Part shown: in pieces, positions 1,705-16,733 of the stretch
Layout of the letters: every line of letters begins with the position of its first letter
Position numbering within the stretch: the first letter of the stretch is position 1
IMG/VR virus record: IMGVR_UViG_3300016476_000212
Span: 1-16,733 of that record
Reading direction: 5' to 3' (one strand)
Length of the DNA: 16,733 nucleotides
DNA from: a virus
Program-made: the position numbers and the translations under genes
The notes under the pieces: model-generated
Seen by the model: only the letters and a program-made list of their open reading frames with translations
What the model was told of the DNA's origin: nothing
Databases searched by the model: none

Positions 1705-1735
1705 AATGTCCGATTTGTGTGCTATCCTATAAGCC

Positions 1736-4382: not shown

Positions 4383-4396
4383 CCCATTCGTCAATA

Positions 4397-4428
4397 GTGA
4401 CCCCGGTACGAGGCTCGGCCGGGGTCAC
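4397..4428 (+). terminator. GC-rich stem-loop immediately after the capsid gene; a possible terminator or transcript stabiliser
   Basis: GTGACCCCGG (4397-4406) pairs perfectly with CCGGGGTCAC (4419-4428) around a 12-nt loop. No U-tract follows, so it is not a canonical intrinsic terminator. Confidence 0.45.
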
Positions 4429-4448
4429 CCCTAATAGAGAGGATTGAA

Positions 4449-5018: not shown

Positions 5019-5404
5019 GCGCGATAACTACCCTACGGGGAACGCTAGCAACCGCACTAGCGAGCGCGTCGGTGTGGTCGGTGTTTTCCTTTCCGCCGGC
5101 TACACCGATTGCCAATAGCTGCGTAATTAGCCCGGATGATCCTTACATTACGCCAAGCAATGACGGCTATATAACTGTCGCGCCTTTGGTCAATTTTAAA
5201 ATTACTCTCATTAAGCCTATGCTCGACAATCAAGGCAACCTAAACGGCATGGAAGATTACATCTTAGAGCTTTACTCAAAGCTTGCCGCATCTACAGTAA
5301 AATACACCATAGGCGAAGTTTCATCACCGGCAGTTATGAACGCCGCTTCCGGCGACTTTCTGGCGTGTGATGTCCGGGTCTCAATTCTATCGAGTTGGAG
5401 TTAG
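5015..5404 (+). CDS. Neck / tail-terminator-like structural protein
   Basis: 129 aa with an ATGA overlap to the adaptor gene. It lies between the adaptor and the major tail protein. The assignment rests on synteny and size only. Confidence 0.45.
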   Translation: MSAITTLRGTLATALASASVWSVFSFPPATPIANSCVISPDDPYITPSNDGYITVAPLVNFKITLIKPMLDNQGNLNGMEDYILELYSKLAASTVKYTIGEVSSPAVMNAASGDFLACDVRVSILSSWS

Positions 5405-5406
5405 AC

Positions 5407-5514
5407 ATGGATAAGCGCACTAGATTTCTGGTCAAGATAGGCCAGATCGAGAAACCAAAACCAGCACCAAAACCAAAGAAGAAAGAAGAACCTAATGGCG
5501 ATCACGCTGAATAA
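5407..5514 (+). CDS. Small basic Pro/Lys-rich ORF (35 aa), hypothetical
   Basis: ATG at 5407 is preceded by GGAG (5397-5400) at 6-nt spacing. Translation: MDKRTRFLVKIGQIEKPKPAPKPKKKEEPNGDHAE. It overlaps the next gene by 20 nt and is below the ORF-track size cut-off. Confidence 0.3.
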   Translation: MDKRTRFLVKIGQIEKPKPAPKPKKKEEPNGDHAE

Positions 5515-5914
5515 CAAGGTAGGGGTCAAGATCGGTACTGTTGATTTCAGCGATCTCGTCACCGCCGCAACTCTCAACATGGCATTCGAGGAGCTTGAAG
5601 TTACTGCAATGGGCGACACCGCTCGGCAGTACGTCAAGGGTCTTGAGACTGCAACCCTTACGCTCTCATTCCTCAACGATCCAGCAAGCACCGAAATCCT
5701 CGACACACTTCTTACCGGCTATGGAACTACTGTCGCCGTCAAGATGATTCAGGATGCTGGCGCGGCTGTTGCAGACGGCAACAAGCTCTACACATTCGAC
5801 ATCTTGGTAAACAACCTCACGCCAATTAACGGCGCAACTGGCGACCTTTCTACTCAAGATGTTACCTTTACTGTAAACTCTGCCGTAACTGTAGCCGATA
5901 CCGGCTCATTCTAA
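5495..5914 (+). CDS. Major tail (tube) protein
   Basis: 139 aa, directly upstream of the chaperone/frameshift pair and the tape measure. The sequence pattern (VTAATLNMAFEELEVTAMGDTARQYVKGLETATLTLSF...) is typical of small siphoviral tail tube proteins. Confidence 0.65.
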   Translation: MAITLNNKVGVKIGTVDFSDLVTAATLNMAFEELEVTAMGDTARQYVKGLETATLTLSFLNDPASTEILDTLLTGYGTTVAVKMIQDAGAAVADGNKLYTFDILVNNLTPINGATGDLSTQDVTFTVNSAVTVADTGSF

Positions 5915-5924
5915 GGAGTTAAGC

Positions 5925-6182
5925 ATGGCGAGCCTCAAAATTGTCCAAACGGACGGAAATACAACTGAATGCAGGATTACCCCGGCTCTCGAGTACGCCT
6001 TCGAGAAATACCACAAAATTGGTTTTCTGAAGGCGTTTCGGGAAAGAGAACAGCAGACTGATCTCTATTGGCTGGCATGGGAAGCCCTACGGCGAAATGG
6101 CGTAACAGTCAAGCCGTTCGGTGACGAGTTCGTCTCTACCCTCGAATCGGTTGAAGTAGTCGAGGACTCAAACCCAAAATAG
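5925..6182 (+). CDS. Tail assembly chaperone (G-like, zero-frame product)
   Basis: 85 aa with SD AAGGAG upstream. It lies between the tail tube and tape measure genes and ends in a slippery heptamer. Confidence 0.7.
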   Translation: MASLKIVQTDGNTTECRITPALEYAFEKYHKIGFLKAFREREQQTDLYWLAWEALRRNGVTVKPFGDEFVSTLESVEVVEDSNPK

Positions 6183-6349
6183 ACCGGGATTCCGTAACTT
6201 ACTTGATAGCCCAATTATCAGTAGAGACAGGAATCCAGCCGAGCGAGTGGTTAGCGATGGATGAGACTCTATTCAGAGCCATCCTTGCTTACATGAAGGA
6301 GAAAGCGAGAAACACTCAAAATGCCCGTAGAAATCAAAGGCATCGTTGA
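5925..6349 (+). CDS. Tail assembly chaperone, -1 frameshift product (GT-like); join(5925..6179,6179..6349)
   Basis: The -1 frame is open from the slippery site to TGA at 6347-6349. It encodes ...NPKIDRDSVTYLIAQLSVETGIQPSEWLAMDETLFRAILAYMKEKARNTQNARRNQRHR. I read this frame codon by codon and found no stops. Confidence 0.6.
6173..6179 (+). promoter_or_regulatory. Programmed -1 ribosomal frameshift slippery heptamer C CCA AAA
   Basis: It is in the correct X XXY YYZ register relative to the 5925 ORF (aaC CCA AAA tag), one codon before the stop. This is the canonical position for siphovirus G/GT chaperones. Confidence 0.6.
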
Positions 6350-6923
6350 AGTTACTCGCGCCATGCGCCAACTTGCTCCAGATATCTTAAAAGAAATGCA
6401 AGCCGAGCTTAGGCCTTTGCTTCGTGAGACCACTAACGCGGCCAAGGCCAAGCTACCCCCTGAGATGGGCTACGAGCTACGCAATTTCAATAACCCCGGC
6501 TATGAGCGTAAATCAGCGACATCTAAGAGCCGAGCGTTTCCGTCCTATAATGTTTCTGAAGTACGCAAAGGTTTAACCTATTCTTTGGCAGCATCCCGGC
6601 CTAATCGCTCTGGCTACGTCTCGCTCGTTCGCATGATGAACAAATCAGCAACCGGAGCAATCATTGAAACAGCAGGACGCAAAGGGCTTTACGGATCAAA
6701 GCGCTCACAGTCCAATAATCCGGACGCTGGAGCGCAATTCATTCGCGCTTTGTCTAATAGCGAGATAGGGCCGCTCAAGCAATACGGAAAGAGCGACAAG
6801 ACAAAGGGGCGTTTACTTTTTGCCGCATGGTACGAACGTCAAAACCGCCTCATGCCAAAGGTGGTTGAGGCTTACGACAAGGCAGCGCGTAGGTTTAAGA
6901 GCAGATTGGACTTGGCAGCATAA
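6321..6923 (+). CDS. Structural protein with an HK97 gp10-like (neck/tail-completion) N-terminus
   Basis: 200 aa. MPVEIKGIVEVTRAMRQLAPDILKEMQAELRPLLRETTNAAKAKLP resembles the gp10-family start, and AIIETAGRKG...PDAGAQFIRAL resembles its core motif. This is recall-based and no search was run. It has a TAATG overlap with the tape measure gene. Confidence 0.4.
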   Translation: MPVEIKGIVEVTRAMRQLAPDILKEMQAELRPLLRETTNAAKAKLPPEMGYELRNFNNPGYERKSATSKSRAFPSYNVSEVRKGLTYSLAASRPNRSGYVSLVRMMNKSATGAIIETAGRKGLYGSKRSQSNNPDAGAQFIRALSNSEIGPLKQYGKSDKTKGRLLFAAWYERQNRLMPKVVEAYDKAARRFKSRLDLAA

Positions 6924-8524
6924 TGGCTATTGATACTTCACTATTTATCAACATCATAAGCCAGTTCAAAACCAAGGGCATCAAGGACGCTCAAAAGGGC
7001 TTTAGCACCCTTGACCGACGCACGGCATCACTTAATAAGAGCTTAGGCATCCTTGCCCGGCGTGTGGCTGTTTTTGAGACTTTGCGACGATCTTTTAACG
7101 CTTTTGTTGAGGACGACGCAGCAGCTCGCAGACTTAATACTACACTTAACAACCTTGGCTTATCTTTCTCGGCTTTAGGTGCTGAGTCCTATATAGCTAA
7201 CCTTGAGCGCACTACAGCCGTTTTAGACGATCAGTTACGCCCGGCCTTTGAGTCACTTGCTCGAGTTACTGGAGACTTTGAACAGACTCAAAGCATTCTT
7301 AACACGGCTTTAGATGTCGCTGCTGGTACTGGTCAGGATGTCGTTACAGTTTCCAAAGCCTTATCTCGGGCGTACGCAGGAAATACGACCTCGCTCTCAC
7401 GTCTAAATGCTGGTCTTACAAAAGCCGAATTAGCAACCGGAAACTTTGCCCTCATTCAAGACCGCCTTAACAGCTTATTCGCTGGCCAAGCAGCAGACCA
7501 GTTAGACACTTACCAAGGAAAAGTAAACCTTTTGCGCCTTGGCTTTAACAATGCGGCAGAGGCACTAGGCAAAGGCATCATTGACGGATTGACCGCACTT
7601 GGCGGCGGAGACGTTCGCAAGTCTGTTGATTTCATCGTAAAGGCAGCAGAAAAGATTGGTGATGCTTTCCGTTTTGTAGGCAAGAACATTGCTTTTCTCA
7701 AGGACATATTTACCACCAAAGACTTTTTCGGAGCCGAGACTCAATTAGAGTTGTTTGAGAAATACCGAAAGGCCGATGATCCTGCTCGAGTTAGGGCATC
7801 CGCTCGAGAGCGTCGCAAGGCACTTGAGGAAGAAAACAAGACGGCGGCCAAGCTAGCCCGGACACGCGCCAAGGACGCAGCAGCCCAAAAGAAGGCAGCA
7901 GCCGATCAAAAGAAAGCCGAGCAAGACAAGCTCAAGCTTCAGACTGCCGGACAACTATTTGATGATGAGCGAATCAGCATTGCAGCTGCTTTGCAGAATG
8001 AATCACTTGATCGCAACGAGATTCTTCGTCTTGAGCTTAAGAAAGCCCTGATTAATGAGAATGCAGACCGAGCAGAGAAGTTAGCCGGACAGCTGCGCGA
8101 TTCTCAACGTGAACTAGCAAGCCTTCAGGCGTTCAAGCTCGCTAACCCATTCCAAGAATGGGAAGACAGCCTTAACCGAGTCCGCGCTGGAGTTGCCAGC
8201 CTTGGGGTGCCGGTTGGTGGCGTTAGCTCGACCGGAACGTCACTTGGTCAGCAACAACCTTTAGCCGGTACTGGGCTAGATCCTTTTGCTGGAACTAATC
8301 TAGCTGGCGTAACAATGGACGACATTAGAGAAGGTTTCGGCGGCGGAGCTTTGGGGGACGTTATTGCCCAAAACGCACCACAGGCCAACGTAAACGTTTA
8401 TGTATCCGGAACCGGCGGCCTAGACGATCAAGCCAAGAAAGATGTAGTGGATGCTGTTATTGAGGCTTCATCGAATGGCTTTGCTACAGGCTGGTTTAGA
8501 ACGACCAACCGGGTGGCTCTGTGA
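6923..8524 (+). CDS. Tape measure protein
   Basis: 533 aa and the longest ORF, downstream of the chaperones. It is helical and Ala/Leu/Lys-rich with a coiled-coil stretch (AKDAAAQKKAAADQKKAEQDKLKLQ) and a Gly-rich C-terminal part. Confidence 0.8.
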   Translation: MAIDTSLFINIISQFKTKGIKDAQKGFSTLDRRTASLNKSLGILARRVAVFETLRRSFNAFVEDDAAARRLNTTLNNLGLSFSALGAESYIANLERTTAVLDDQLRPAFESLARVTGDFEQTQSILNTALDVAAGTGQDVVTVSKALSRAYAGNTTSLSRLNAGLTKAELATGNFALIQDRLNSLFAGQAADQLDTYQGKVNLLRLGFNNAAEALGKGIIDGLTALGGGDVRKSVDFIVKAAEKIGDAFRFVGKNIAFLKDIFTTKDFFGAETQLELFEKYRKADDPARVRASARERRKALEEENKTAAKLARTRAKDAAAQKKAAADQKKAEQDKLKLQTAGQLFDDERISIAAALQNESLDRNEILRLELKKALINENADRAEKLAGQLRDSQRELASLQAFKLANPFQEWEDSLNRVRAGVASLGVPVGGVSSTGTSLGQQQPLAGTGLDPFAGTNLAGVTMDDIREGFGGGALGDVIAQNAPQANVNVYVSGTGGLDDQAKKDVVDAVIEASSNGFATGWFRTTNRVAL

Positions 8525-9756
8525 CCTACCCAATAAGCCTTACAGTCTCGTTTGATTTCTCTAGCGGCCCTAACTTTGACCCACCTTTCCAGATTGGCAT
8601 TAGCCAACTTGGGATTGGTGTTATGGGTGCAGGTGGTACAGCCTCACAGGTAGTGGACTTAACGAGCCAGACCATCAGCATCAACATCAGGCGAGGCCGT
8701 GACCTTTCTCAAGACCGGTTTAACGCTGGCTCTTGCATCGTCCGCGTCGTTGATCCGAATGGCGACTGGAACCCTCAAAACCCATCAAGCCCTTATTTTG
8801 GCCTTCTACAGCCCCTTAGGAAGCTTATCGTTACCGGGACATATAACGGAACCCCCTACCCTCTATTCGCCGGTTATACGCTCTCCTATGCCTATTCTTA
8901 CCCTAAGAATGAGGAGTTCGGTTACGTTGATATTCAATGCACCGATGCCTTCACCTTGTTCAACAAGTCAGCCATTACCACAGTCACAGGCGGAACCGCT
9001 GGCCAGACCACCGGCGCACGCATCAACAAGATTCTCGACATGGTGGGATTCCCCGGCTCTCAGCGTGTTATTGATACCGGAGACGTAACAGTTCAAGCAG
9101 ACCCCGGAACCCTTCGCACAGTCCTTCAAGCCTTGCAGGATGTTGAGTTCACCGAGTATGGCGCAGTTTATGTAGATGCTCGAGGCGATGTCGTATTTCG
9201 TGAGCGCACCGATGCAGTCGAGACCTTAGGGGGTACGGCTACAGTCTTTGACCAGACGGGAAACATCCCCTACAAAGACCTCAAGTTTGCCTTTGACGAC
9301 AAGCTCATCTTCAATGTCGCCAATTTCCAGCGTGAAGGCGGCACAATGCAGACCGCTTTCGACCAAGACTCTATAGACACTTACTTTCCTCATGCCATCA
9401 CCAAAGAAAACCTCTTACATGAGACGGATGCGGACACCCTAGAACTGGCTCAGACCTATGTAGCCAACAGATCGGTGACCGATATCCGCATTGACTCCAT
9501 GACCCTCGACCTCACGACACCTAATTATCAGGCAGGTATTGAGGCGGCTTTGGGTCTAGATTTCTTCGCCCCGGTCGAAATCAGCAACATCCAGCCCGGC
9601 GGATCAACGATTACCAAAACCCTGCAAGTGTTCGGGGTTCAGCATCAAATCACGCCACGCAGCTGGCTTACTACCTTTACCACCGGGGAACCTATCCTCG
9701 AGGGTTTCATTATCGGAAATGCCGCCTATGGTATCCTAGGCGTTAGCAGATTATAG
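8521..9756 (+). CDS. Distal tail protein (Dit-like) / minor tail protein
   Basis: 411 aa. The GTG start overlaps the tape measure stop (GTGA). The N-terminal pattern INIRRGRDLSQDRFNAGSCIVRVVDPNGDWNP...LRKLIVTG...PLFAGY is typical of proteins encoded just after the tape measure. Confidence 0.6.
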   Translation: MTYPISLTVSFDFSSGPNFDPPFQIGISQLGIGVMGAGGTASQVVDLTSQTISINIRRGRDLSQDRFNAGSCIVRVVDPNGDWNPQNPSSPYFGLLQPLRKLIVTGTYNGTPYPLFAGYTLSYAYSYPKNEEFGYVDIQCTDAFTLFNKSAITTVTGGTAGQTTGARINKILDMVGFPGSQRVIDTGDVTVQADPGTLRTVLQALQDVEFTEYGAVYVDARGDVVFRERTDAVETLGGTATVFDQTGNIPYKDLKFAFDDKLIFNVANFQREGGTMQTAFDQDSIDTYFPHAITKENLLHETDADTLELAQTYVANRSVTDIRIDSMTLDLTTPNYQAGIEAALGLDFFAPVEISNIQPGGSTITKTLQVFGVQHQITPRSWLTTFTTGEPILEGFIIGNAAYGILGVSRL

Positions 9757-9765
9757 GAGAAATAC

Positions 9766-10155
9766 ATGGCAACAGGCTTTCCAGCATCTACCGGCGACGT
9801 TCTTACGGCGGCCATGTTCAATGAGCTTGTCGCGTACACCATTAACAGCCAGTCCGGTACGACCTATACCCTAGCCTCAACCGACCAATATCAAGCCCTT
9901 GTCGTTACCTCTAACGCATCTGCTAAGACTGTAAGCATCCCAACAGACGCAACTTATAACTTCCCTGTAGGCACAGCCATCACAATCCTCAATACCGGCA
10001 CAGCCGATACTACAGTCCAAGCCGTAACCTCTGGAACTACTACAGTCACCTCAGCCGGTGCGACTAGCGCACAGCCTAAGATTGGACAATATAAGGCAGC
10101 AGTAGCCATCAAGACCGCCGCTAACGCGTGGACAGTTGTCGGAGCTGTTGTCTAG
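9766..10155 (+). CDS. Small minor tail / fibre-like protein
   Basis: 129 aa with SD AGGAG upstream. The N-terminus GFPASTGDVLTAAMFNEL and the Thr/Ala/Ser-rich beta body ending AANAWTVVGAVV resemble short phage tail-tip proteins. Confidence 0.45.
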   Translation: MATGFPASTGDVLTAAMFNELVAYTINSQSGTTYTLASTDQYQALVVTSNASAKTVSIPTDATYNFPVGTAITILNTGTADTTVQAVTSGTTTVTSAGATSAQPKIGQYKAAVAIKTAANAWTVVGAVV

Positions 10156-10718
10156 TGATCGGAAATCTATCCGCTGCTATCTTTACGCCGGGAGCAACCA
10201 TTGGCGATTTTGAGTCTATTGCGACTGTAACCGCTACCGGTTCAAGCTCAACGATTTTATTTACAGGCATTCCAAACACCTTCCAGCACCTTCAAATGAG
10301 ATTTATTGTGCGAGACAACAACACATCGAGCGATAATGGTGTAAATGTTCGCGTTGGCAACGGCTCCATAGATTCAGGGGCTAATTACTCGTTTCACAGA
10401 TTACGAGGTAATGGAGCATCCGCCAGCGCAGACGGCTACGCTTCACAGACTGCTGGAAACCTTGTTACCGCATCAGCTAGTGCAACAGCAGACTCTTACT
10501 CGGTGGGTGTTATTGATTTCCTAGACTACCGCGATACAAACAAATATAAGACTTTTAGGAATCTTCATGGTTACGATTTTAACGGAAGCGGAAGCGTCTG
10601 GATGATTTCTAGCCTTTGGATGAGCACTAGCGCAATTAACCAAATTGAGTTTTCAATTGGTGGCGGCAAGGTATTTACCAATAAATCAGTTTTTGCCCTC
10701 TACGGAATCAAAGGTTAA
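10155..10718 (+). CDS. Putative receptor-binding/tail fibre protein, paralog 1 of 3
   Basis: The GTG start overlaps the upstream TAG (taGTG). The ORF track's longer start (GTG at 10128) is also possible. It shares with paralogs 2 and 3 the motifs (F/Y)ExIAT, F(T/S)xI(P/S)xx(F/Y)xxL, NYS..LRG(N/D)G, (D/N/S)Yxx(T/S)xxK and the C-terminal LYGIK. Confidence 0.6.
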   Translation: MIGNLSAAIFTPGATIGDFESIATVTATGSSSTILFTGIPNTFQHLQMRFIVRDNNTSSDNGVNVRVGNGSIDSGANYSFHRLRGNGASASADGYASQTAGNLVTASASATADSYSVGVIDFLDYRDTNKYKTFRNLHGYDFNGSGSVWMISSLWMSTSAINQIEFSIGGGKVFTNKSVFALYGIKG

Positions 10719-10721
10719 CCC

Positions 10722-11210
10722 ATGCCAGCTACCTATGAACCGATAGCGACGACGACGCTAACCAGCGCACAAAGCAGTGTGACTTTTTCTGCAATAAGTG
10801 GAAGCTATACGGATATTGTTTTAGTCTGGTCTGGCACTCTAACGACGGGAACTAGTGTCTGGGGTCTGCAATATAATTCAGACACAGCAAGCAACTATTC
10901 ATGGACTTCACTTCGTGGCGACGGATCAAGCGCAACTAGCGCACGCGATAGCGGCTCGACTCGTATCCTTTGCGGATGGATTGGAACTAGCCAGACCATC
11001 GAAATCGTGCAGATTATGAACTACTCAAACACGACGACAAACAAGACCAACATCGCACGCAATAACTCAACCGCCACCTCAACCTATGTAAGCGCGAATG
11101 TCGGGTTATGGCGTAGCACTTCCGCCATCACTTCCATCACAATTAAGACAGATTCCTCTACTTTTACCTCCGGCTCCACCTTCACCCTCTACGGAATCAA
11201 GGCGGCCTAA
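10722..11210 (+). CDS. Putative receptor-binding/tail fibre protein, paralog 2 of 3
   Basis: 162 aa. It starts MPATYEPIATTTLT and ends FTLYGIKAA. It is Ser/Thr/Asn-rich. Confidence 0.6.
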   Translation: MPATYEPIATTTLTSAQSSVTFSAISGSYTDIVLVWSGTLTTGTSVWGLQYNSDTASNYSWTSLRGDGSSATSARDSGSTRILCGWIGTSQTIEIVQIMNYSNTTTNKTNIARNNSTATSTYVSANVGLWRSTSAITSITIKTDSSTFTSGSTFTLYGIKAA

Positions 11211-11211
11211 C

Positions 11212-11724
11212 ATGCCAGTAACCTATAAGAAGATTGCGAGTGTTACAGTAACAGGGTCAACCGCCGCCAATATGGAATTTACGAGCATTCCGTCAACCTA
11301 TGATGATTTGATTTTACACATCTCAGCAAGATCAAACCGTGGAACAGCCGAGGATGGTCTAGGGCTCAGGCTGAATAGCATTACTACCGGATATACCTAC
11401 CGCAATTTGACTTCCAATGGTTCAACAGTTGCGAGCGCAAACACAAACTTTGAGCAAATCTGGGCGAGCCGAATTCCAGCATCAACCGTGACCGCGAACA
11501 CTTTCGGAAGCGTTATGGTTTATTTACCGTCCTACGCTGGTAGCACCGCAAAATCTTATTACACCGATGGCGTTACCGAAAACAACGGAACTGAGGCGTA
11601 TATGGTTTTGGAAGCAATTACAAACACTACCACCGCTGCCATTTCAAGCATCACGCTTACCTCGATCAATGCGAGCCTCGTTCAGTATTCCACCGCAACG
11701 CTTTACGGAATCAAACGATCCTAA
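11212..11724 (+). CDS. Putative receptor-binding/tail fibre protein, paralog 3 of 3
   Basis: The internal ATG at 11212, one nt after the paralog 2 stop, gives MPVTYKKIASVTVT...ATLYGIKRS (170 aa). The ORF-track start at 11098 would add a Pro-rich extension lying entirely inside paralog 2. Confidence 0.6.
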   Translation: MPVTYKKIASVTVTGSTAANMEFTSIPSTYDDLILHISARSNRGTAEDGLGLRLNSITTGYTYRNLTSNGSTVASANTNFEQIWASRIPASTVTANTFGSVMVYLPSYAGSTAKSYYTDGVTENNGTEAYMVLEAITNTTTAAISSITLTSINASLVQYSTATLYGIKRS

Positions 11725-11733
11725 GGAGACAAT

Positions 11734-11949
11734 ATGGAAACCAAGCTCGTAGTTGATTGCTCCACAGGAGTAGTCGAGGAAGTAGCACTTACCGAGGAAG
11801 AATTGGCACAGCGTGAAGCAGACCGCATCGCGTTTGAGGAAGCGGAAGCGGCTCGACTTGCTAAGGAAGCTGAGAAGGCGGCTAAGAAGGCTGAACTCCT
11901 CGCCAAGCTGGGATTGACGGAAGATGACGCGAAGCTTCTCCTCTCCTAA
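11734..11949 (+). CDS. Small acidic coiled-coil protein, hypothetical
   Basis: 71 aa with SD AAGGAG upstream. It contains the EEELAQREADRIAFEEAEAARLAKEAEKAAKKAELLAKLGLTEDDAKLLLS helix. It lies between the fibre genes and the lysin. Confidence 0.5.
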   Translation: METKLVVDCSTGVVEEVALTEEELAQREADRIAFEEAEAARLAKEAEKAAKKAELLAKLGLTEDDAKLLLS

Positions 11950-12364
11950 GCTGTGTAAAGCCGGAATTCAACTCAGAGAGCAATTAGATGACTCGTTTCC
12001 GGAGCGTCGAAGGCCGGATGGATGGGTTGCCGATGCCCGGCACTATCGCGACAATCCTAGCTCTGACCATATCCCGGATGCAGAGGGATGGGTTCGTGCC
12101 TTGGATGTATCAGCTGAGCTGGGATTCGGCGAGCAAATGCATGACTTGGCTAATCAGCTTCGAATACATGCCAAGCGAGGCGATAAGAGGATCGCTTACA
12201 TCATCTTCGACGGTCGAATATGTTCACCATTATTCAAGTGGCGATGGCGAAAGTACCGTGGGGCTAACCCTCATCGAGCCCACATGCACATAAGTTTCAC
12301 CAAAAAGGGCGACCAAGACGGCCGCTTCTTTAACGTACCAATGCTAGGGGGCGACCTTGTCTGA
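11924..12364 (+). CDS. Putative endolysin, LAS/M15-type zinc peptidase-like
   Basis: 146 aa. SSDHIPDAEGWVRALDVS (His...Asp) plus NPHRAHMHISF (HxH) resemble the metal-ligand motifs of the LAS (VanY / L-Ala-D-Glu peptidase) superfamily. A holin candidate follows directly. Confidence 0.55.
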   Translation: MTRSFSSPKLCKAGIQLREQLDDSFPERRRPDGWVADARHYRDNPSSDHIPDAEGWVRALDVSAELGFGEQMHDLANQLRIHAKRGDKRIAYIIFDGRICSPLFKWRWRKYRGANPHRAHMHISFTKKGDQDGRFFNVPMLGGDLV

Positions 12365-12518
12365 CCAGACAAAAACCTATTTACAACATCCGGCTGTTTT
12401 GGCCTCTGGAGCTTTCCTTGCTGCCTGGGCAGCTACTAACTTTGAGCTGGACTACCGAGCCGTCCTATGGGCTGTGGTATCAGGTGTCTTTGGATACGCC
12501 AAGCCCTATAAGAAGTGA
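12357..12518 (+). CDS. Putative holin (53 aa, two TM segments), TTG start
   Basis: This is my own translation. TTG at 12357 is preceded by AGGGGG (12345-12350) at 6-nt spacing. The product is LSDQTKTYLQHPAVLASGAFLAAWAATNFELDYRAVLWAVVSGVFGYAKPYKK. It has two hydrophobic stretches and a basic C-terminus. The stop TGA (12516-12518) overlaps the next GTG start. It is below the ORF-track size cut-off. Confidence 0.5.
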   Translation: MSDQTKTYLQHPAVLASGAFLAAWAATNFELDYRAVLWAVVSGVFGYAKPYKK

Positions 12519-12790
12519 GGGCGGCGGAATGGGTCGGACTGATTGCTGGTCTGACCGCGATACTTGGTGCGTTTGTAGCCGCCTTACGATGGACGGTTCA
12601 CCAATTTGTTTTAGAGCTCAGTCATCAGTTCACGACACGGATGGACAAAATCGAGTACGACATTAGCGTGTTGTCCTCAAGACAGTCAGACATCTATGGA
12701 AAACTTATGCACGAAAGGGGCGGACGTGGCTCGAAAGAAGACAAAAGCGCAAAAGCTCGCAAGCCTACGCGCAAAAGAGCGAGCCGCTAA
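12515..12790 (+). CDS. Membrane protein of the lysis cassette (N-terminal TM, basic C-terminus); second holin or lysis regulator candidate
   Basis: 91 aa with a GTG start in a GTGA overlap. WVGLIAGLTAILGAFVAALRW is a clear TM helix. The C-terminus is KEDKSAKARKPTRKRASR. Confidence 0.5.
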   Translation: MRAAEWVGLIAGLTAILGAFVAALRWTVHQFVLELSHQFTTRMDKIEYDISVLSSRQSDIYGKLMHERGGRGSKEDKSAKARKPTRKRASR

Positions 12791-12980
12791 ACGCACGAAA
12801 CCAATCACCAAGCTAGACGAGTGGGCGATCAGTCTTTACGAGATGGCTGAATCACTCAAGCGAGCAGGGTTTGACGAGGCAACCGTTCAGGGCTGGATTA
12901 TTGACCAGCGACTACCGGAATGGATTTCACCGCCACCCGACGATCTAGATGATGATTTCGAGGAAGAGGAAGACTATTAA
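12726..12980 (+). CDS. Small DNA-binding-like protein (HTH, excisionase/MerR-like pattern) with an acidic C-terminal tail
   Basis: GTG at 12726 is preceded by AAAGGGG (12714-12720) at 5-nt spacing. The ORF-track ATG at 12696 is the alternative start. Features are a basic N-terminus, then LDEWAISLYEMAESLKRAGFDEATVQGWIIDQRLPEW, then DDLDDDFEEEEDY. Confidence 0.45.
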   Translation: MARKKTKAQKLASLRAKERAAKRTKPITKLDEWAISLYEMAESLKRAGFDEATVQGWIIDQRLPEWISPPPDDLDDDFEEEEDY

Positions 12981-13716
12981 GCGAATAGCTTTCGTACCTG
13001 ATCTTCAAGTCCCATTCCACAGCGAGCCAATGGTTAATTCCATGGCTCGCTTTCTTGTTAAGTGGAAGCCTCACCGCACCATCCAAATCGGCGATGAGAT
13101 AGACCTACCACAGCTGCGTAACGGAGCCAATGCCCTCGAGGAAGCCATGGGCAACATTGACGACGATCGGGCTTGGACTCAGGAGATTCTTGAACAGCTC
13201 GGCGTTACCGATGTGGTCGGTAGCAACCATGGCGCTCGCGTCTATAAGAGCCTCATGAACCGCCTACCAGCCTTCACCAAGCTCCCAGAGATGGCCTACC
13301 ACCGCTTTATGGGCTACGACAAAATGGGCATTAACTACCACCCTCAGGGCGTGGGATTTGCTCCGGGTTGGGTGGCTATCCATGGCGACACGGCTCCGCT
13401 ATCCAATAAGCCCGGCCAGAGTGCCCTTAATTCGGCTTTAAGAGCCGGTAAGAGCGTGGTTCAAGGGCATACCCATAGATTAGGTCTATCTTCGCATTCT
13501 GAGGCGTACAAAGGCAATTATGGCCGTATTCTGTGGGGTGTCGAAGTGGGCAACCTCGTGGACTTGTCCAGCCCCGGAATGGGCTACACCCGAGGCTATG
13601 CGAACTGGCAACCCGGGTTTGTCGTGGGCTACCTAGACGGCTCCAAGTTTTACCCTGTCCTCGTACCAATGAATCCGGACGGAACTTTCATATTTGAGGG
13701 CAAGAAGTACCGCTAA
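12949..13716 (+). CDS. Calcineurin-like metallophosphoesterase
   Basis: 255 aa with the ordered motif set VPDLQVPFH, IGDEID, GSNHG, IHGD and QGHTHR. This is the signature of the metallophosphoesterase superfamily. Confidence 0.75.
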   Translation: MMISRKRKTIKRIAFVPDLQVPFHSEPMVNSMARFLVKWKPHRTIQIGDEIDLPQLRNGANALEEAMGNIDDDRAWTQEILEQLGVTDVVGSNHGARVYKSLMNRLPAFTKLPEMAYHRFMGYDKMGINYHPQGVGFAPGWVAIHGDTAPLSNKPGQSALNSALRAGKSVVQGHTHRLGLSSHSEAYKGNYGRILWGVEVGNLVDLSSPGMGYTRGYANWQPGFVVGYLDGSKFYPVLVPMNPDGTFIFEGKKYR

Positions 13717-13736
13717 TCGTTATCAAATCGTTATCA
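13715..13736 (+). repeat. Perfect tandem 11-bp direct repeat AATCGTTATCA x2
   Basis: Read directly: 13715-13725 equals 13726-13736. It starts at the stop codon of the phosphoesterase gene, at the head of a 92-bp intergenic gap. Confidence 0.85.
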
Positions 13737-13780
13737 ACACACCGGGGTATCCGCCATCCTTAGGGCGTAGCCTTTGCCTA

Positions 13781-13795
13781 GTCCGAGACTCGGAC
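13781..13795. promoter_or_regulatory. Perfect palindrome GTCCGAG-A-CTCGGAC (operator-like or small hairpin)
   Basis: Read directly. It lies 13 nt upstream of the ATG at 13809 and just before the SD AGGAAAGGA. Confidence 0.5.
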
Positions 13796-13808
13796 AGGAA
13801 AGGAAATT

Positions 13809-13979
13809 ATGACCGCTATTGGCTTTGATCCGTTAGCGATTTACTACATTATCGCACTTATAGCTATCCCAATTCTGGGATTGCTTTACACAGCCATAAC
13901 TGAGAACTGGTACTGGAAAGGATTTAAGGATGGAAAACGACTCGCCGAAAACAATCACAGCGCAAGAAATACTCGATGA
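13809..13979 (+). CDS. Small membrane protein (56 aa, one TM), hypothetical
   Basis: This is my own translation. The ATG is preceded by AGGAAAGGA. The product is MTAIGFDPLAIYYIIALIAIPILGLLYTAITENWYWKGFKDGKRLAENNHSARNTR. It overlaps the next gene by 50 nt and is below the ORF-track size cut-off. Confidence 0.4.
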   Translation: MTAIGFDPLAIYYIIALIAIPILGLLYTAITENWYWKGFKDGKRLAENNHSARNTR

Positions 13980-14244
13980 GGCCGGACATATACGAGCCTC
14001 AAGGGGTGCAGTTTATGGGCATCCTTACATTAACCATCTTCGAATCTCGAAGCTTTGGTCGGCATATTTGGATTTTCCGATTACGCCAGATCAAGCGGCG
14101 ATATGTATGGCACTCGTCAAAGTCTCACGACTTGCAGAGACTCCGGGTCATAGAGGAAAAGATGGATACATTGATGGTGTGGCCTATCTCTCACTTGCTG
14201 CCCAACTCGCGACAACCGATCCCACCGAGTTTGATGCCTATTAG
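13930..14244 (+). CDS. Conserved phage protein of unknown function (DUF6378-like pattern)
   Basis: 104 aa with SD GGAAAGGA 7 nt upstream. The pattern R..VYGHP..NH..IS.LWSAYL...ITP.Q...CM.LVK.SRL....GH..D.YID...Y matches my recollection of a widespread phage domain of unknown function. Confidence 0.55.
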   Translation: MENDSPKTITAQEILDEAGHIRASRGAVYGHPYINHLRISKLWSAYLDFPITPDQAAICMALVKVSRLAETPGHRGKDGYIDGVAYLSLAAQLATTDPTEFDAY

Positions 14245-14503
14245 AAAATTACAAGGGAAGTCGGTTTGGTGCGATGTCTGCAAGCTGGCGTACCCTCAAG
14301 GACATGTTAGACAACAGACCCCGGCCGTGTGGCAGGTTATCTCAGAGACACAAAAACACAAAGGCAGGACGCGAAACTACTGCCAGCCATGCGCTAACAA
14401 TGCTCAAATGTGGCACGATGGCTCTATATGGACATTCCGGCAACAGCTGGATTACGCACTAGGAAAGGAAGCAATAGATGGCATGGAACTTACAGGATTA
14501 TGA
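14234..14503 (+). CDS. Small Cys4 zinc-ribbon protein (89 aa)
   Basis: This is the ATG-initiated 3' part of the 13976-14503 track ORF. It contains WCDVCKLAY...NYCQPCANN (CxxC...CxxC). It overlaps the previous gene by 11 nt and the next by 26 nt. Confidence 0.45.
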   Translation: MPIRKLQGKSVWCDVCKLAYPQGHVRQQTPAVWQVISETQKHKGRTRNYCQPCANNAQMWHDGSIWTFRQQLDYALGKEAIDGMELTGL

Positions 14504-15143
14504 GGATGTGGCCAGCCTTAACCGCTGGTTTCAAGATAACTTCCCGACAGGCAGAATCTTGCCTACTTTTGTCTATCAAAACTACCAAGATCAAGAGGTA
14601 GTTATTGAATGTGCCTTGTTTAGGGATATCAATGACGAGCATCCAGCTGTGGTGAATGTGGCTCGAGGTAAAGCATCGGACTATCCAAAGAACATGCAGC
14701 GATGGTATGTCGAGGACACGGCTACGAGCGCAATCGGTAGGGCTATTTTGCTTATCAAGGGAGCCAATAAGACGGCTACGCAAGACTCGATGAGACAAGT
14801 CGCCGCAACTGATCCAGGGCACAAAGTAGAGCATCCATTCAAGCCCGAGGGAAAGCCAGTACCTAACGAGCCAGAAACAGTAGTTTGGGAAGACTTTGAG
14901 CCTAAGGCATTTAGCGAGCAAGACACCTTTATCGCAGACCTACAGGCACAGCTAGGAGCCACAGTAGAGGGCTTCAAGTGCAAGCATGGAGACATGATTA
15001 AGAAGGAAGGCGTGAGTGCCAAGACATCTAAGCCCTACTTTGGCTATGTCTGCGGAGCAAGGTCTAAGGCTGACCAATGCGAGGGCAAGTGGGCAAAGAT
15101 GGTTGGTGGTAAATGGGTCTTCGAGGGAAAGGCGACTGACTGA
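14478..15143 (+). CDS. DNA-binding protein; possibly a Rad52/Sak-like single-strand annealing core plus a C-terminal topoisomerase-type zinc ribbon
   Basis: 221 aa with a strong SD AGGAAAGGAAG. The N-terminal pattern YEDVASLNRWF...VVIECALF...VARG...VEDTATSAIGRAILLIKG loosely resembles the Rad52-family beta-beta-beta-alpha core (KEAVTDGLKRAL-type helix). The C-terminus FKCKHGDMIKKEGVSAKTSKPYFGYVCGARSKADQCEGKW resembles a Zn-ribbon. The function is tentative. Confidence 0.35.
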   Translation: MAWNLQDYEDVASLNRWFQDNFPTGRILPTFVYQNYQDQEVVIECALFRDINDEHPAVVNVARGKASDYPKNMQRWYVEDTATSAIGRAILLIKGANKTATQDSMRQVAATDPGHKVEHPFKPEGKPVPNEPETVVWEDFEPKAFSEQDTFIADLQAQLGATVEGFKCKHGDMIKKEGVSAKTSKPYFGYVCGARSKADQCEGKWAKMVGGKWVFEGKATD

Positions 15144-15304
15144 TGGAAGATCGAACAGGAGAGCCAAATGGCTACCCGGTGAACTGTGACTGGTGTGGCC
15201 TACGGCTGGCTAGTTATGCAGCCTATCGAGTGCAGATGGCAGCGCACGATCCCTTGGATTACAACTGGGCTTGTGATCAATGTTACGAAAGGGTTTGGAA
15301 ATGA
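15143..15304 (+). CDS. Tiny Cys4 zinc-ribbon protein (53 aa)
   Basis: This is my own translation from the TGATG overlap: MEDRTGEPNGYPVNCDWCGLRLASYAAYRVQMAAHDPLDYNWACDQCYERVWK. It is below the ORF-track size cut-off. Confidence 0.45.
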   Translation: MEDRTGEPNGYPVNCDWCGLRLASYAAYRVQMAAHDPLDYNWACDQCYERVWK

Positions 15305-15492
15305 GAGCAATTTGCCAAATAAAAAAATGTGAAGACACAGAAATCATGAAAAAAGTACACGAAGATTGGGAGGATTTGATTTATGGTGTTTGTTGGCAAT
15401 GCGGCGACAAACTAAACGAAATAATAGGTATTGACTTGCTGGATAATTTTCAATTTGTGTTGGGATTGGTTCGCGAGAATGTCCGGGACTAG
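15301..15492 (+). CDS. Small Cys4 protein (63 aa) in an AT-rich segment
   Basis: The ATG at 15301 forms an ATGA overlap with the previous ORF. The product is MRAICQIKKCEDTEIMKK...GVCWQCGDKLNEII... (Cx4C...CxxC). The ORF-track start at 15280 lies inside the previous ORF. Confidence 0.45.
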   Translation: MRAICQIKKCEDTEIMKKVHEDWEDLIYGVCWQCGDKLNEIIGIDLLDNFQFVLGLVRENVRD

Positions 15493-15817
15493 AAGGGAGC
15501 GAGGCCGTGAGACTGAGAAACTTGTGGCGAAATATCTGGTTGCTCACGGCTTTACAGGGGCACACGTCACCAGTATGGCGGCTAGTGGTAGCGACATCCT
15601 TGGTATTGAGGGTCTGGATATTGAGGTTAAAGCGAGGCGAGGATTTAATCCATCGGCTGCTATGGCACAACTTAGAGCCAGAGCCAAAGAAACAGGAATG
15701 GGAGTGGCCGTTATGAGGCTAGACGGACAAGGTGAGGCATCTATGGACGATTGGGTAGGCGTGATTCGCCTATCTGATCTGGTCTATCTATTAAAGGCGG
15801 CTGGTTATGGCTCTTGA
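15479..15817 (+). CDS. PD-(D/E)XK-type nuclease, Holliday-junction-resolvase-like
   Basis: The first ATG of the 15431 (TTG) track ORF is used. The product is MSGTRRERGRETEKLVAKYLVAHGF...GSDILGIEGLDIEVKARR. The pattern G..E......L..G...(G)xD....x..(I/V)EVK fits small archaeal-Hjc/YraN-like nucleases. Confidence 0.55.
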   Translation: MSGTRRERGRETEKLVAKYLVAHGFTGAHVTSMAASGSDILGIEGLDIEVKARRGFNPSAAMAQLRARAKETGMGVAVMRLDGQGEASMDDWVGVIRLSDLVYLLKAAGYGS

Positions 15818-15914
15818 GGATGATAAGAGAGTCAGCCGGTGCATAGCGTGTGGAGTCTATGTTTATGCTCGTGAGCTGTGTGAGCGTTGCTATCCAAAAG
15901 ACCAGGCTGCATAG
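15807..15914 (+). CDS. Mini Cys4 zinc-ribbon ORF (35 aa)
   Basis: This is my own translation: MALEDDKRVSRCIACGVYVYARELCERCYPKDQAA. AAAGGCGG lies 7 nt upstream of the ATG. It overlaps the nuclease gene by 11 nt. Confidence 0.35.
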   Translation: MALEDDKRVSRCIACGVYVYARELCERCYPKDQAA

Positions 15915-15958
15915 GCTCTGACCTGCGGTTATGTAAATGTGGCGTAAATCACTGTCCA

Positions 15959-15964
15959 TATAAT
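15959..15964 (+). promoter_or_regulatory. Candidate -10 hexamer TATAAT
   Basis: This is a perfect TATAAT in the AT-rich gap between 15914 and the ATG at 15989. It is preceded by two GTAAAT copies 10 bp apart (15934-15939, 15944-15949). No good -35 element was found. Confidence 0.25.
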
Positions 15965-15988
15965 GAGATTATTAGAAAGGCTACGCTC

Positions 15989-16414
15989 ATGAGACTTGAC
16001 TCGTTCGGTATGCTAAGTCGCAGCCCCGACACTATAGACGGTCGGGGACAAGCGTCTTCGCATTGGGCCCGACTATTACTATTTTCGGTAATAGTCTTTT
16101 GTCTATTTATGCTAAGTAGCAATATGTCGCATGCTCGACCAGCCAAAGACCCAATGAACTACAAACTATACGCTCATAATCAATTACAAGACTGGGATCA
16201 ATTCCTTTGCCTTGTAAGACTCTATGAGAAGGAAAGCAACTGGAGACCAGAGGCTAAGAATGGGTCTCACTATGGGATACCCCAAGGGCGTAGTAAGTGG
16301 CTGGCTACAGCTACACCCTATGAGCAGATTCGATGGGGTCTTAGGTACATAGAGAACAGACATAAGACACCATGTAAAGCATTACGTCACTTCAAGCGTG
16401 TAGGCTGGCACTAA
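15989..16414 (+). CDS. Signal-anchored/secreted lytic-transglycosylase-like (lysozyme-like) protein
   Basis: The ATG at 15989 has AGAAAGG 8 nt upstream. The product has a hydrophobic WARLLLFSVIVFCLFMLSS followed by SHA. Next comes DQFLCLVRLYEKESNWRPEAKNGSHYGIPQ...QIRWGLRYIENRHKTPCKALRHFKRVGWH. This matches my recollection of the actinobacterial transglycosylase-like domain (ES.W...A.N....YGI.Q...QI.WGL.YI..RY..PC.A......GWY). Confidence 0.6.
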   Translation: MRLDSFGMLSRSPDTIDGRGQASSHWARLLLFSVIVFCLFMLSSNMSHARPAKDPMNYKLYAHNQLQDWDQFLCLVRLYEKESNWRPEAKNGSHYGIPQGRSKWLATATPYEQIRWGLRYIENRHKTPCKALRHFKRVGWH

Positions 16415-16665
16415 TGGCCAAGGAATCAAAGCGCGATGGTAGGTGGAAGAAGCTGAGGTTGCAGATACTTAATCGCGATGCGTGGACTTGTGCTTATTGT
16501 GGGGGTGAGGCTAACGAGGTAGATCACATCATTCCGCTTAAGCGTGGTGGTAGTGATGATCCAGATAACCTTACTGCAGCGTGTAGGACGTGCAATATAC
16601 GTAAGAAAGATGGGACTGTGGGCGTTTTTTTAGCACAATCTTCTACCCCCCCCTGTCTTTCGTGA
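16414..16665 (+). CDS. HNH endonuclease
   Basis: 83 aa with a TAATG overlap to the upstream gene. It carries the classic motif W..LR..IL.RD...C.YCG....EVDHIIPL..GG.D..DNL...C..CN..K. Confidence 0.9.
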   Translation: MAKESKRDGRWKKLRLQILNRDAWTCAYCGGEANEVDHIIPLKRGGSDDPDNLTAACRTCNIRKKDGTVGVFLAQSSTPPCLS

Positions 16666-16733
16666 TCGTCTCTCTCCAAAACAGTCCAAACCGGTGCAAA
16701 ACGGACAGACAAAATCTATAACTCCGTCCTATT
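16483..16733. repeat. Right copy of the 251-bp direct terminal repeat
   Basis: Same string as 1-251. It covers the 3' two-thirds of the HNH gene plus 68 bp downstream. Confidence 0.95.

Follow-up and report, generated by a model that had tools for sequence, protein, structure and literature searches.

Endolysins that carry a signal peptide are distinguished from signal-arrest-release (SAR) endolysins (PMC6116114; PMC8385771). The first class is represented by Lys44 of the Oenococcus phage fOg44 (reference in PMC6116114), which bears an N-terminal signal peptide, is exported via the Sec system of a Gram-positive host independently of a holin, and is the sole endolysin of this phage, encoded beside its holin. 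In SAR endolysins such as P1 Lyz and P21 R, a hydrophobic N-terminal segment directly precedes a lysozyme-fold domain and export is likewise Sec-dependent, but SAR domains have no likely signal-peptidase site and are not efficiently cleaved (PMC8385771). Lysins can also be encoded by more than one gene, as in Gordonia phages with separate genes for M15 and GH25 lysins (PMC9671378). Here, we analyse a second muralytic-type gene at positions 15989-16414 of a 16,733-nt stretch of viral DNA (IMG/VR record IMGVR_UViG_3300016476_000212, positions 1 to 16,733; the whole stretch is referred to as the window). We put the probability at about 55% that this open reading frame (ORF) specifies a precursor from which a small secreted enzyme is made, either a peptidoglycan glycosidase or a lytic transglycosylase, and that this enzyme acts by the mechanism proposed below. 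The enzyme itself is a newly found member of an already known protein type.

The protein shares with Lys44 an N-terminal signal peptide, holin-independent export by Sec and a Gram-positive host, all predicted here from sequence. Unlike Lys44, it would be a second enzyme with a minimal, glycosidase-type mature domain of 92 amino acids (aa), and it is encoded not within the lysis cassette but 3.2-3.6 kb from it (11924-12790), beside the genes for an HNH endonuclease and TerL. In addition, the family to which it belongs has an n-region of 28-57 aa that doubles as a structured RNA. The same small domain is present in gp39 of Microbacterium phage Shocker ('endolysin, glycosyl hydrolase domain'; 41% identity, Foldseek TM 0.87), where it is also encoded by a separate gene that complements a peptidase lysin (gp38, 'endolysin, peptidase domain') in an actinophage. 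However, gp39 has neither a hydrophobic segment nor the pair of cysteine residues seen here and its gene lies inside the lysis cassette, and it therefore represents the classical holin-dependent form. In its architecture, the window protein comes closest to secreted 'transglycosylases' from large Streptomyces phages, namely Coruscant gp246 and Jay2Jay gp42. They combine a hydrophobic N-terminus with the same domain, the Cys pair and a GW(Y/H) end, and their genes reside outside the lysis cassette with an HNH endonuclease gene next to them. They differ by a long Lys/Pro-rich linker, a length of 178-205 aa and genomes of 130 kb. The Apf C-terminal domain proteins of lactobacilli (NF052397) resemble the window protein in the domain, which is matched above the cut-off, and in the GW(Y/H) end. 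Unlike the window protein, they are cellular proteins that sit on the surface and contain LysM or other wall-binding parts, and their enzymology, too, is largely inferred.

Predicted catalytic domain

The precursor and its parts are as follows:

15989-16414, + strand: muralytic gene for the 141-aa precursor, stop codon included
15989-16135, + strand: coding part of the predicted signal peptide, aa 1-49 (hydrophobicity, composition, small-x-small sites, selection, open frame)
16136-16411, + strand: mature catalytic domain, aa 50-141 (NF052397, PHROG 12661, invariant residues, AF2, Foldseek)
16208-16210, + strand: C74
16232-16237, + strand: E82-S83
16373-16375, + strand: C129 (the domain also includes the C-terminal GWH)

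The ORF starts with the ATG at 15989, ends with the stop codon at 16412-16414 and encodes 141 aa. A first-pass annotation, made from the sequence alone, had pointed to a second muralytic-type gene outside the lysis cassette, with a hydrophobic segment followed by SHA-R, several motifs, a TATAAT upstream and two hairpins in the 5' coding part. All of these elements were found again where it had placed them, and a gene of muralytic type is supported. It is the recurrence of the promoter cassette, both hairpins and the hydrophobic segment in relatives from other metagenomes that sets them apart from chance. The motifs read KESNW (E82, S83 and W85), HYGIPQG, QIRWGLRYI and PCKAL...VGWH. Within the lysozyme/SLT fold, the C-terminal part of about 90 residues falls into the 'aggregation-promoting-factor C-terminal-like' branch. 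The NCBIfam model NF052397 (AggPromo_Cterm) matches aa 71-140 with 67.0 bits against a cut-off of 40 and is covered from position 1 to 79 of 80, while PHROG 12661, 'transglycosylase', is matched with E = 2e-15. As in NF052397, where the C-terminus reads G-W-Y/H, the protein ends in ...KRVGWH and its relatives in GWH, GWY or NYH. A C-terminal GW(Y/H) has been described for Apf-like putative transglycosylases of lactic acid bacteria (PMC3017865). In a 51-sequence alignment E82, S83, W85, S93, H94, G96, Q99, S102, Q113, Y120, R124 and the two cysteines, C74 and C129, are invariant. The E82-S83 pair is located at the end of helix 69-82 in an AF2 model of the mature domain (pLDDT 85), as expected for the catalytic Glu and its E-S motif in the SLT superfamily.

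The search for a lysozyme-like fold that the first-pass annotation had recommended was successful. Foldseek comparison of the model with BFVD gave a best E of 7e-8 at a TM of 0.93 for phage proteins annotated as SLT/LT_GEWL; other BFVD matches were Jay2Jay 'Endolysin', Shocker 'Endolysin, glycosyl hydrolase domain' and segments of tape-measure proteins. The top structures in the PDB are almost all lytic transglycosylases or GH23 enzymes, i.e., MltF, 9udh (a phage lytic transglycosidase), Cj0843c and a GH23 chitinase, and they are accompanied by T7 ejectosome proteins (lytic transglycosylase domain of gp16) and by RpfC (E 6.6). Sequence searches of the PDB, both with the single sequence and with a profile, yielded no match, and Pfam SLT (PF01464) was hit below threshold in 12 of 51 relatives (E at least 0.014). 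Judged from these matches and the model, the domain has a lysozyme fold of minimal size and would act as a glycosidase or lytic transglycosylase; its family is already annotated in databases.

Genomic setting and proposed role

The muralytic gene is the penultimate gene of a closed miniphage genome of 16.48 kb. The first 251 nt of the window are exactly identical to its last 251 nt, which leaves 16,482 unique bp (circular or terminally redundant) with a G+C content of 49.8%, and every gene lies on the + strand. On the circular map the gene is followed by that for the HNH endonuclease, a 118-nt gap and the gene for TerL, and it sits at the border of the replication block and the packaging/structural block. 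Its earlier placement in an early-looking block is doubtful, given that it heads the HNH-TerL packaging block of the circular map. The lysin and holin-like genes (11924-12790) are 3.2-3.6 kb away, and no holin-like gene is adjacent. The position of the gene, penultimate and beside the HNH gene, is kept in relatives of 15-21 kb, and a Peptidase_M15_4 lysin is also present in three of the four relative loci examined. In total, 841 metagenomic protein homologues were found, many of them on contigs of 16-17 kb; freshwater 'miniphage' actinophages with genomes down to 14 kb have been reported (PMC6802176). The closest matches for TerL among isolated phages stem from actinophages and share about 30% identity, and the isolated-phage collection contained no near-identical DNA. 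When genome_contigs was searched for a host, a single match was obtained, on a 3.3-kb contig of a metagenome-assembled genome, and this contig is probably phage.

In the mechanism that we favour, the Sec system of the host would export the protein as it is made and signal peptidase I would cut after A49, freeing an enzyme of about 10.5 kDa on the wall side of the membrane of a host that is probably actinobacterial and monoderm. There, the enzyme would cleave glycan strands without the need of a holin, and it would be of the fOg44 Lys44 (signal-peptide) type, not of the SAR type. Its complement would be the cytoplasmic LAS/M15-type peptidase encoded at 11924-12364, which would depend on the holin-like proteins, and both enzymes would form a two-gene 'split endolysin' with two routes to the wall. 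Since the gene heads the HNH-TerL-structural block of the circular genome, it most likely rides on, or starts, the late transcript. A translation-coupled RNA switch would tune the amount of a potentially dangerous exported enzyme, and might also mask or expose an in-frame internal start at 16109.

Several points weigh against this reading. The window protein does not match any Pfam family and its matches to solved structures are weak (E at least 0.45, TMq at most 0.54), while the presumed peptidase lysin (11924-12364) lacks a Pfam match even at E <= 10. An n-region of 28 aa, which reaches 39-57 aa in relatives with the type B upstream architecture described further below, is far beyond the usual length and could impair or delay Sec targeting. 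The protein could stay anchored if the predicted site is left uncut, and the logic changes if the host were diderm. The type A promoter cassette is missing in 58% of the relatives. Finally, the gene is located 3.2 kb from the holin-like genes, so that it is the enzyme type only which points to a role in lysis.

The alternative that survives best is a secreted enzyme that is not a lysis protein and instead serves accessory wall remodelling, be it Rpf-like stimulation of a slow-growing host, an effect on cells nearby or on superinfecting phage, or a loosening of the wall that helps assembly or release. We regard this as possible, although the odds are not in its favour. It would agree with the gene lying not in the lysis cassette but across the replication block from it, and with the nature of the domain relatives, which occur as secreted 'transglycosylases' far from the lysis genes in large Streptomyces phages and also serve as entry domains in tape-measure proteins. 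The structural resemblance to RpfC, weak as it is, and the function of bacterial Apf-type proteins as surface and cell-shape factors (PMC3017865) point in the same direction. On the other hand, a genome of 16.5 kb has little spare room, yet hundreds of relatives keep the gene at this position. Microbacterium phage Shocker has the same domain, annotated there as the glycosidase half of its two-gene endolysin, and a match of the window protein to the Rpf family in Pfam (PF06737) was not obtained.

Predicted export signal and start of translation

The coding part of the N-terminus is preceded by a ribosome-binding site (RBS) and is subdivided as follows:

15975-15980, + strand: Shine-Dalgarno (SD)-like GAAAGG, 8 nt before the ATG (GAAAGG, GGAGG or GGAAGG at the same place in relatives)
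15989-16072, + strand: n-region, aa 1-28
16073-16120, + strand: h-region, aa 29-44
16121-16135, + strand: c-region, aa 45-49

The N-terminus looks like a cleavable Sec signal peptide with a predicted cut after A49 (SHA|RP) and not like a SAR anchor. It has the tripartite build of a signal peptide in front of the muralytic domain. The n-region carries a net charge of +1 and ends in R28, the hydrophobic core comprises 16 residues (aa 29-44, LLLFSVIVFCLFMLSS) and is followed by an uncharged stretch up to A49, and the c-region offers small residues at positions -3 and -1 (S47-H48-A49) before the R-P of the mature protein. In the best 15-residue window of the core (aa 29-43, LLLFSVIVFCLFMLS) the mean Kyte-Doolittle value amounts to 2.87 and the fraction of G, A, S and T to 0.13. 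Direct reading of the protein revealed neither a twin-arginine motif next to the core nor a lipobox. By a heuristic search, all 51 homologues combine a hydrophobic core with a small-x-small candidate site within a few residues, for example SHA|RP, ASA|RP, AVA|WK or ASA|SK. At the site and the mature N-terminus, encoded by codons 47-56, purifying selection is strong, with 83% of the differing codon pairs being synonymous. In a clade consisting of L022-24 and L027, a strong RBS precedes a short signal peptide of textbook form, MRRSFLILVITAVSLAVPPASA|SK. Of six homologues inspected, only the window family, Coruscant gp246 and Jay2Jay gp42 contain the Cys pair, and all of these have a hydrophobic segment at the N-terminus. 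The pair is absent from cytoplasmic Shocker gp39 and from a tape-measure copy; Endor1 has a hydrophobic segment but no Cys pair.

The signal peptide can only be made if translation starts at codon 1. It would be lost if synthesis began at the ATG or TTG of a repeat copy at 16109 (see below), resulting in an untranslated structured leader of about 120 nt and a cytoplasmic, holin-dependent endolysin of 101 aa. The hydrophobic segment would then be a by-product of a U-rich hairpin region; in a softer version, both isoforms are made. We consider either version unlikely. Gene callers gave 101-aa versions, MLS(T/A)D.., for four clusters (P0057-60), the repeat copy always provides ATG or TTG, cytoplasmic homologues such as Shocker gp39 exist, and the hairpin P1 and the alternative helix introduced in the next section could mask either start. 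It also fits this idea that codons 3-28 lack a coding signature. However, the frame is open across the whole region in relatives and the other frames are rich in stops: within the 60 codons upstream of the mature part, 91 distinct relatives contain 31 in-frame stops as compared with 493 and 327 in the other two frames, and all 31 fall in clades whose ORF starts later. Despite many non-synonymous changes, the 16 core residues remain hydrophobic and uncharged across relatives. Whichever upstream architecture is present (type A or B), an RBS and an ATG stand before codon 1, while an SD-like sequence was not seen before the internal starts 16109 and 16124. Distant clades have unambiguous signal peptides, and the Cys pair fits an exported protein. 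The open frame, the conserved RBS and ATG and the lack of an internal SD sequence speak for an export signal that is indeed translated, and a start only at the internal ATGs, which the first-pass annotation had named as the outcome that would remove its hydrophobic segment, is unlikely.

Weak hydrophobicity and a high content of Gly and Ala characterise the SAR domains of P1 Lyz and P21 R. That the window protein is a SAR endolysin, as had been considered in the first-pass annotation, i.e., that an uncleaved anchor keeps the enzyme membrane-held and inactive until a pinholin depolarises the membrane, is very improbable: a hydrophobic segment does precede a muralytic domain and small holin-like membrane proteins are encoded elsewhere in the genome, but of the two defining SAR features neither was found, because the core is strongly hydrophobic and consists of L, F, I and V with only 13% G/A/S/T, and because a small-x-small site follows it in 51 of 51 homologues, and, moreover, this site region is under strong purifying selection, a sister clade carries a plain short signal peptide and no pinholin gene is adjacent to the muralytic gene.

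A conserved RNA structure in the predicted signal-peptide codons

The cleavable signal peptide that we favour has an n-region whose codons behave differently from those of the mature domain. For 16 distinct close relatives with all 141 codons and no indels, the entropies at the three positions of codons 3-28 are 0.40/0.59/0.52, as opposed to 0.50/0.33/1.00 in the mature domain, and the synonymous fraction is 24% as opposed to 57%. Codons 3-28 thus appear to be devoid of a coding signature, and the peptide they encode appears not to be under purifying selection. At the same time, the RNA of the window between 15971 and 16150 folds with a z of -3.5. Its elements are:

16010-16063, + strand: P1, extended hairpin of 54 nt (RNAalifold, pair counts, compensatory variants)
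16010-16018/16055-16063, + strand: lower stem of P1
16019-16021/16052-16054, + strand: middle stem of P1, CGC/GCG
16024-16030/16041-16047, + strand: inner stem of P1 (hairpin 1), CCCCGAC/GTCGGGG, with the loop ACTATAGACG
16071-16096, + strand: P2 (hairpin 2) in h-region codons; consensus register 16078-16083/16090-16095, 10 bp in the window, followed by TTTT
16109-16117, + strand: copy 2 of the 9-mer ATGCTAAGT; copy 1 lies at 16010-16018, 99 nt (33 codons) upstream, and both read M-L-S

Pairs were counted on 24 distinct sequences, with the same pairs and slid partners as controls. Standard pairs fill 94% of the cells (26-43% in the slid controls), compensatory change on both sides is seen for 13 of 20 pairs (1-4 in the slid versions), and the covariation score is 0.471, compared with at most 0.091 for the slid versions. 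The two hairpins noticed in the first-pass annotation are therefore real. The outer stem of P1 appears as ATGC/GCAT or ACGC/GCGT in several relatives, the middle stem as GCC/GGC or GGC/GCC, and the inner stem as CCCCGAG/CTCGGGG, CCGGGC/GCCCGG or CGGCGGC/GCCGCCG, while the loop, ACT(A/T)TAGACG, is nearly invariant. P2 varies in the same manner (CTATTAC/GTAATAG, GCTAA/TTAGC, GTCAA/TTGAC). Judged by covariation, codons 8-36 form an RNA structure that is kept by compensatory change; as a whole, the conserved structure with its parts P1 and P2 overlies codons 8-43. In IMG/VR, the P1 pattern occurs in this gene only, apart from one chance match. A covariance model identified one copy in the window and gave weaker matches at the same gene position in clades at about 42% protein identity, which rebuild the stems from other bases (GGUCGG/CCGACC for P1, GUUGAU/AUCAAC for P2). 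Still more distant clades have other G+C-rich extended hairpins at the same place. Since the n-region peptide is not under purifying selection and the hairpins covary, the long n-region is best explained as the translated footprint of the RNA element.

The loop of P1 (AUAGAC, 16034-39), which is invariant and thus offers no covariation, is complementary to GUCUAU (16101-06) and may form a pseudoknot with it; this candidate was set aside. GUCUAU at 16101-16106 lies just upstream of repeat copy 2. A complement (TCTAT or TATAG) is retained by roughly half of the close relatives, in some of them in another codon phase.

Rfam 15 contained no match at the gathering score for the whole window, and only chance-level matches (E > 3) were obtained for 15700-16733. 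A translated RNA element with alternative pairing appears to be new in that it is not in Rfam; precedents in the literature were not searched. HK022 put RNAs and T7 RNase III sites are cis-acting structured RNAs of phage operons that lie in untranslated regions. The window element resembles them in having covariation-kept hairpins at the beginning of a long co-directional operon, immediately behind a promoter-like site. Unlike them, it resides inside an open, translated frame, and neither sequence nor Rfam similarity exists.

Evidence for an alternative pairing comes from the repeat. Its variable base N, the synonymous third position of a Leu codon (A, G or T), is the same in both copies in 25 of 26 distinct relatives. 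In copy 1, N pairs with alignment column 67 (position 16058) in 24 of 24 sequences (GC 10, AU 7, GU 4, UA 3); in copy 2, it can pair with the same column in 23 of 24 (CG 10, UA 6, UG 4, AU 3). The two pairings correspond to pairs 24-67 and 67-123, and both covary. In the resulting alternative helix, 16055-63:16109-17, 67% of the cells are paired, compared with 24-42% when slid. A mutual-information scan for a trans partner of the repeat found none beyond copy 2 and column 67/70, and a reverse-complement copy of the repeat is not present in the window. This three-way covariation is most simply explained if two helices that exclude each other, 16010-18:16055-63 and 16055-63:16109-17, are both under selection. 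In the window, the energies are -36.1 kcal/mol for the P1 state, -29.2 kcal/mol for the alternative and -27.8 kcal/mol for the common core. Because the P1 state is much more stable, the alternative helix would be expected chiefly while something, such as a ribosome, occupies copy 1. Candidate targets of control include the yield of exported enzyme, the internal start at 16109, processing, and read-through into the late genes. Note that the alternative helix adds only about 1.4 kcal/mol in the window and that copy 2 is missing in L055 and other clades, for which reasons the 'switch' may be clade-specific or spurious.

Tentatively, and with little confidence in the sum of its parts, we suggest that the approximately 130 nt at the 5' end (about 15996-16117) constitute an undescribed cis-regulatory RNA within signal-peptide coding sequence that is widespread in metagenome miniphages of about 16 kb. 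Its ribosome-sensitive two-helix switch might set the output of exported hydrolase or the ratio of exported to cytoplasmic isoform, or might condition read-through into the late operon, and the length of the n-region would be due to the RNA.

Translational bypass of the T4 gene 60 type was considered as an account of the GCTNAGT repeats and rejected as the main reading. CTN AGT does occur at codons 9-10 and 42-43, with the same N in 25 of 26 relatives. However, a stop after the take-off site was not found, the 33-codon gap being open in all relatives and encoding the hydrophobic core. Copy 2 is absent in L055 and other clades, and pairing with column 67 explains the covariation more simply.

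The first-pass annotation had also suggested that the hairpins attenuate expression, with termination at about 16100. In this case, hairpin 2 and the T-run behind it would act as an intrinsic terminator or attenuator that halts most transcripts at this point. A 10-bp stem followed by TTTTGTCTATTT is indeed present in the window, a terminator scan lists hairpin 2, and the hairpin is conserved by covariation. However, only 3 of the 10 pairs are G-C, the number of terminator-like matches equals the expectation from shuffled sequence, T-richness is expected from hydrophobic codons, and the relatives keep the hairpin but have CGUAUUUAUAGG or CUUGAUCUAU in place of the U-tract. Furthermore, the alternative helix forms only past the putative termination point and can therefore not act as an antiterminator. 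With the hairpin conserved and the U-tract not, attenuation is not supported as a general mechanism, and a terminator that halts most transcripts is quite unlikely.

Upstream region

The region upstream of the gene was compared in 91 distinct relatives, 15 of which, the window included, have what we term type A and 53 of which have type B. The elements in the window are:

15918-15938, + strand: type B relic CTGACCTGCGGTTATGTAAAT, perfect over 21 nt, directly before the type A cassette; non-coding and out of frame here
15938-15953, + strand: operator-like 16-bp near-palindrome TGTGG-N6-TCACT (consensus of the relatives TGTGA-N6-TCACA) over the -35/spacer region
15959-15964, + strand: candidate -10 hexamer TATAAT (relatives TATAAT, TATATT, TATAGT, CATATT; A2 and T6 invariant)
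15996-16000, + strand: invariant TTGAC, 8 nt upstream of the TAnnnT-like TATGCT (16009-16014), in all long-n-region clades and with no synonymous variation

The TATAAT had originally been proposed as the gene's own promoter. Taken alone, the hexamer does not carry this proposal. Four copies in the window compare with 6.5 expected by chance, no good -35 hexamer was found for the one at 15959-15964, and the scan did not list a promoter there. It is, though, the only one of the four copies that is located in a gap between called genes, and it is part of an ordered layout, TGTGA-N6-TCACA, N5, (T/C)ATA(A/T/G)T, GAGAYKAT, RBS and ATG, that recurs in 15 of the 91 sequences, one distant clade included. 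What holds is that the 'own candidate promoter' is, by sequence conservation, a promoter-like cassette kept in a minority of relatives. The palindrome is found in all type A relatives and in the distant clade (L102, L113, L118, L128). At two mismatches its pattern is not rarer than chance in the window, and its case therefore rests on conservation. As it is centred about 25 nt upstream of the predicted transcription start (about 15971), it would be an operator-like site rather than a class II activator site.

Type B relatives lack the type A cassette. Their ORF is extended by M..T(T)RRLTCGFVNG, encoded by CGACACGCC-N2-3-CTGACCTGCGGTTWTGTAAATGG. Synonymous variation is absent from this DNA, relatives use two frames for CGACACGCC, and in L048 and in the window the DNA is non-coding; the motif is thus a nucleotide-level element. 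The relic CTGACCTGCGGTTATGTAAAT occurs once in the window where none is expected. The same DNA stands directly upstream of (A/C)TTGAC in 53 of the 91 relatives and is read there as ..LTCGF/YV... The full type B consensus, CGACACGCC-N2-3-CTGACC(T/A)GC(G/A)(G/C)TT(T/A)T..AAATGG, is positioned directly upstream of the invariant TTGAC-N8-TAnnnT and was observed in L005, L006, L012, L013, L019-21, L028, L045, L046, L048 and many of L063-L126. Two interpretations of this region were discarded. TTGAC-N8-TAnnnT together with the type B motif was not taken as a sigma-70 promoter since manual reading gave no fitting spacing on either strand, nor did any of the RNA pairings tried account for the motif, and the pairing of a small hairpin in CGACACGCC is inherent to the CG-ACA-CG palindrome and does not reflect covariation.

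Other features of the genome

In addition to the muralytic gene, the following genes were assigned:

301-1704, + strand: TerL
1736-2869, + strand: portal protein
2853-4382, + strand: protease-capsid fusion
6923-8524, + strand: tape measure protein (assigned from the ORF list, without a family match)
11924-12364, + strand: LAS/M15-like lysin, a presumed peptidase
12357-12518, + strand: small membrane protein
12515-12790, + strand: small membrane protein
12949-13716, + strand: metallophosphoesterase
13930-14244, + strand: DUF6378 protein
14478-15143, + strand: gp49-like protein
15431-15817, + strand: RusA-like protein
15807-15914, + strand: 35-aa CxxC..CxxC protein
16414-16665, + strand: HNH endonuclease, its start overlapping the stop of the muralytic gene (ATGA-type overlap)

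The window contains two copies of the C-terminal half of the HNH gene (1-251 and 16483-16733). In Coruscant (L130, 3659-4970) and Jay2Jay (L134, 607-1644), the 'transglycosylase' gene is followed by an HNH gene and a gene for tRNA-Thr. A mobile transglycosylase-HNH cassette shared with Streptomyces phages was considered and dismissed, as the similarity of their HNH proteins to that of the window is of a generic kind only (23% identity over 60 aa). The 118-nt stretch between the HNH and TerL genes (16666-16733 plus 184-300) is the only sizeable non-coding gap adjoining TerL and is likely the cos/packaging region. Many related contigs stop 300-400 nt past the muralytic gene, a hint that true physical ends lie in this place. 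A gene for the small terminase subunit was not recognised anywhere in the window.

The presumed peptidase lysin shows an H..D / HxH pattern, SDHIPDAEGWVRALD ... AHMHISF. Its positional counterparts in the relatives L045-L047 match Peptidase_M15_4, while that of L048 is without a Pfam match. Further downstream, the ORFs 12515-12790 and 12696-12980 overlap by 95 nt in different frames, and one of the two starts is therefore probably mis-set. The 94-aa product has a very acidic C-terminus, DDLDDDFEEEEDY.

Three consecutive ORFs upstream of the lysin gene (10128-10718, 10722-11210 and about 11212-11724) share an end motif (..F.LYGIKG, ..FTLYGIKAA and ..ATLYGIKRS) and, by their sequences, resemble paralogues in tandem, of a protein like those of tail fibres or receptor binding. 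A strong G+C-rich inverted repeat, GTGACCCCGG...CCGGGGTCAC, is located at 4397-4428, within the 66 nt that separate the capsid gene from the next one. It is not followed by a T-run and for this reason may be a hairpin that stabilises or processes the transcript. A perfect tandem direct repeat, ATCGTTATCAA x2, at 13716-13737 lies in the 92-nt gap before the ORF at 13809 and is followed by the hairpin GTCCGAGACTCGGAC; it may serve the early region as an iteron or operator-like site.

Implications

If a conserved, Sec-type exported glycosidase does work alongside a cytoplasmic peptidase, this phage group, with its very small, actinophage-like genomes, would have a lysis strategy with two routes, and the exported enzyme would provide a minimal lysozyme-fold enzyme of about 92 aa. 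The RNA inside the signal-peptide codons, if functional, would be a clean natural overlap of RNA-level and protein-level codes, in which the n-region peptide appears unconstrained, and it would represent a new structured RNA class from uncultured phages.

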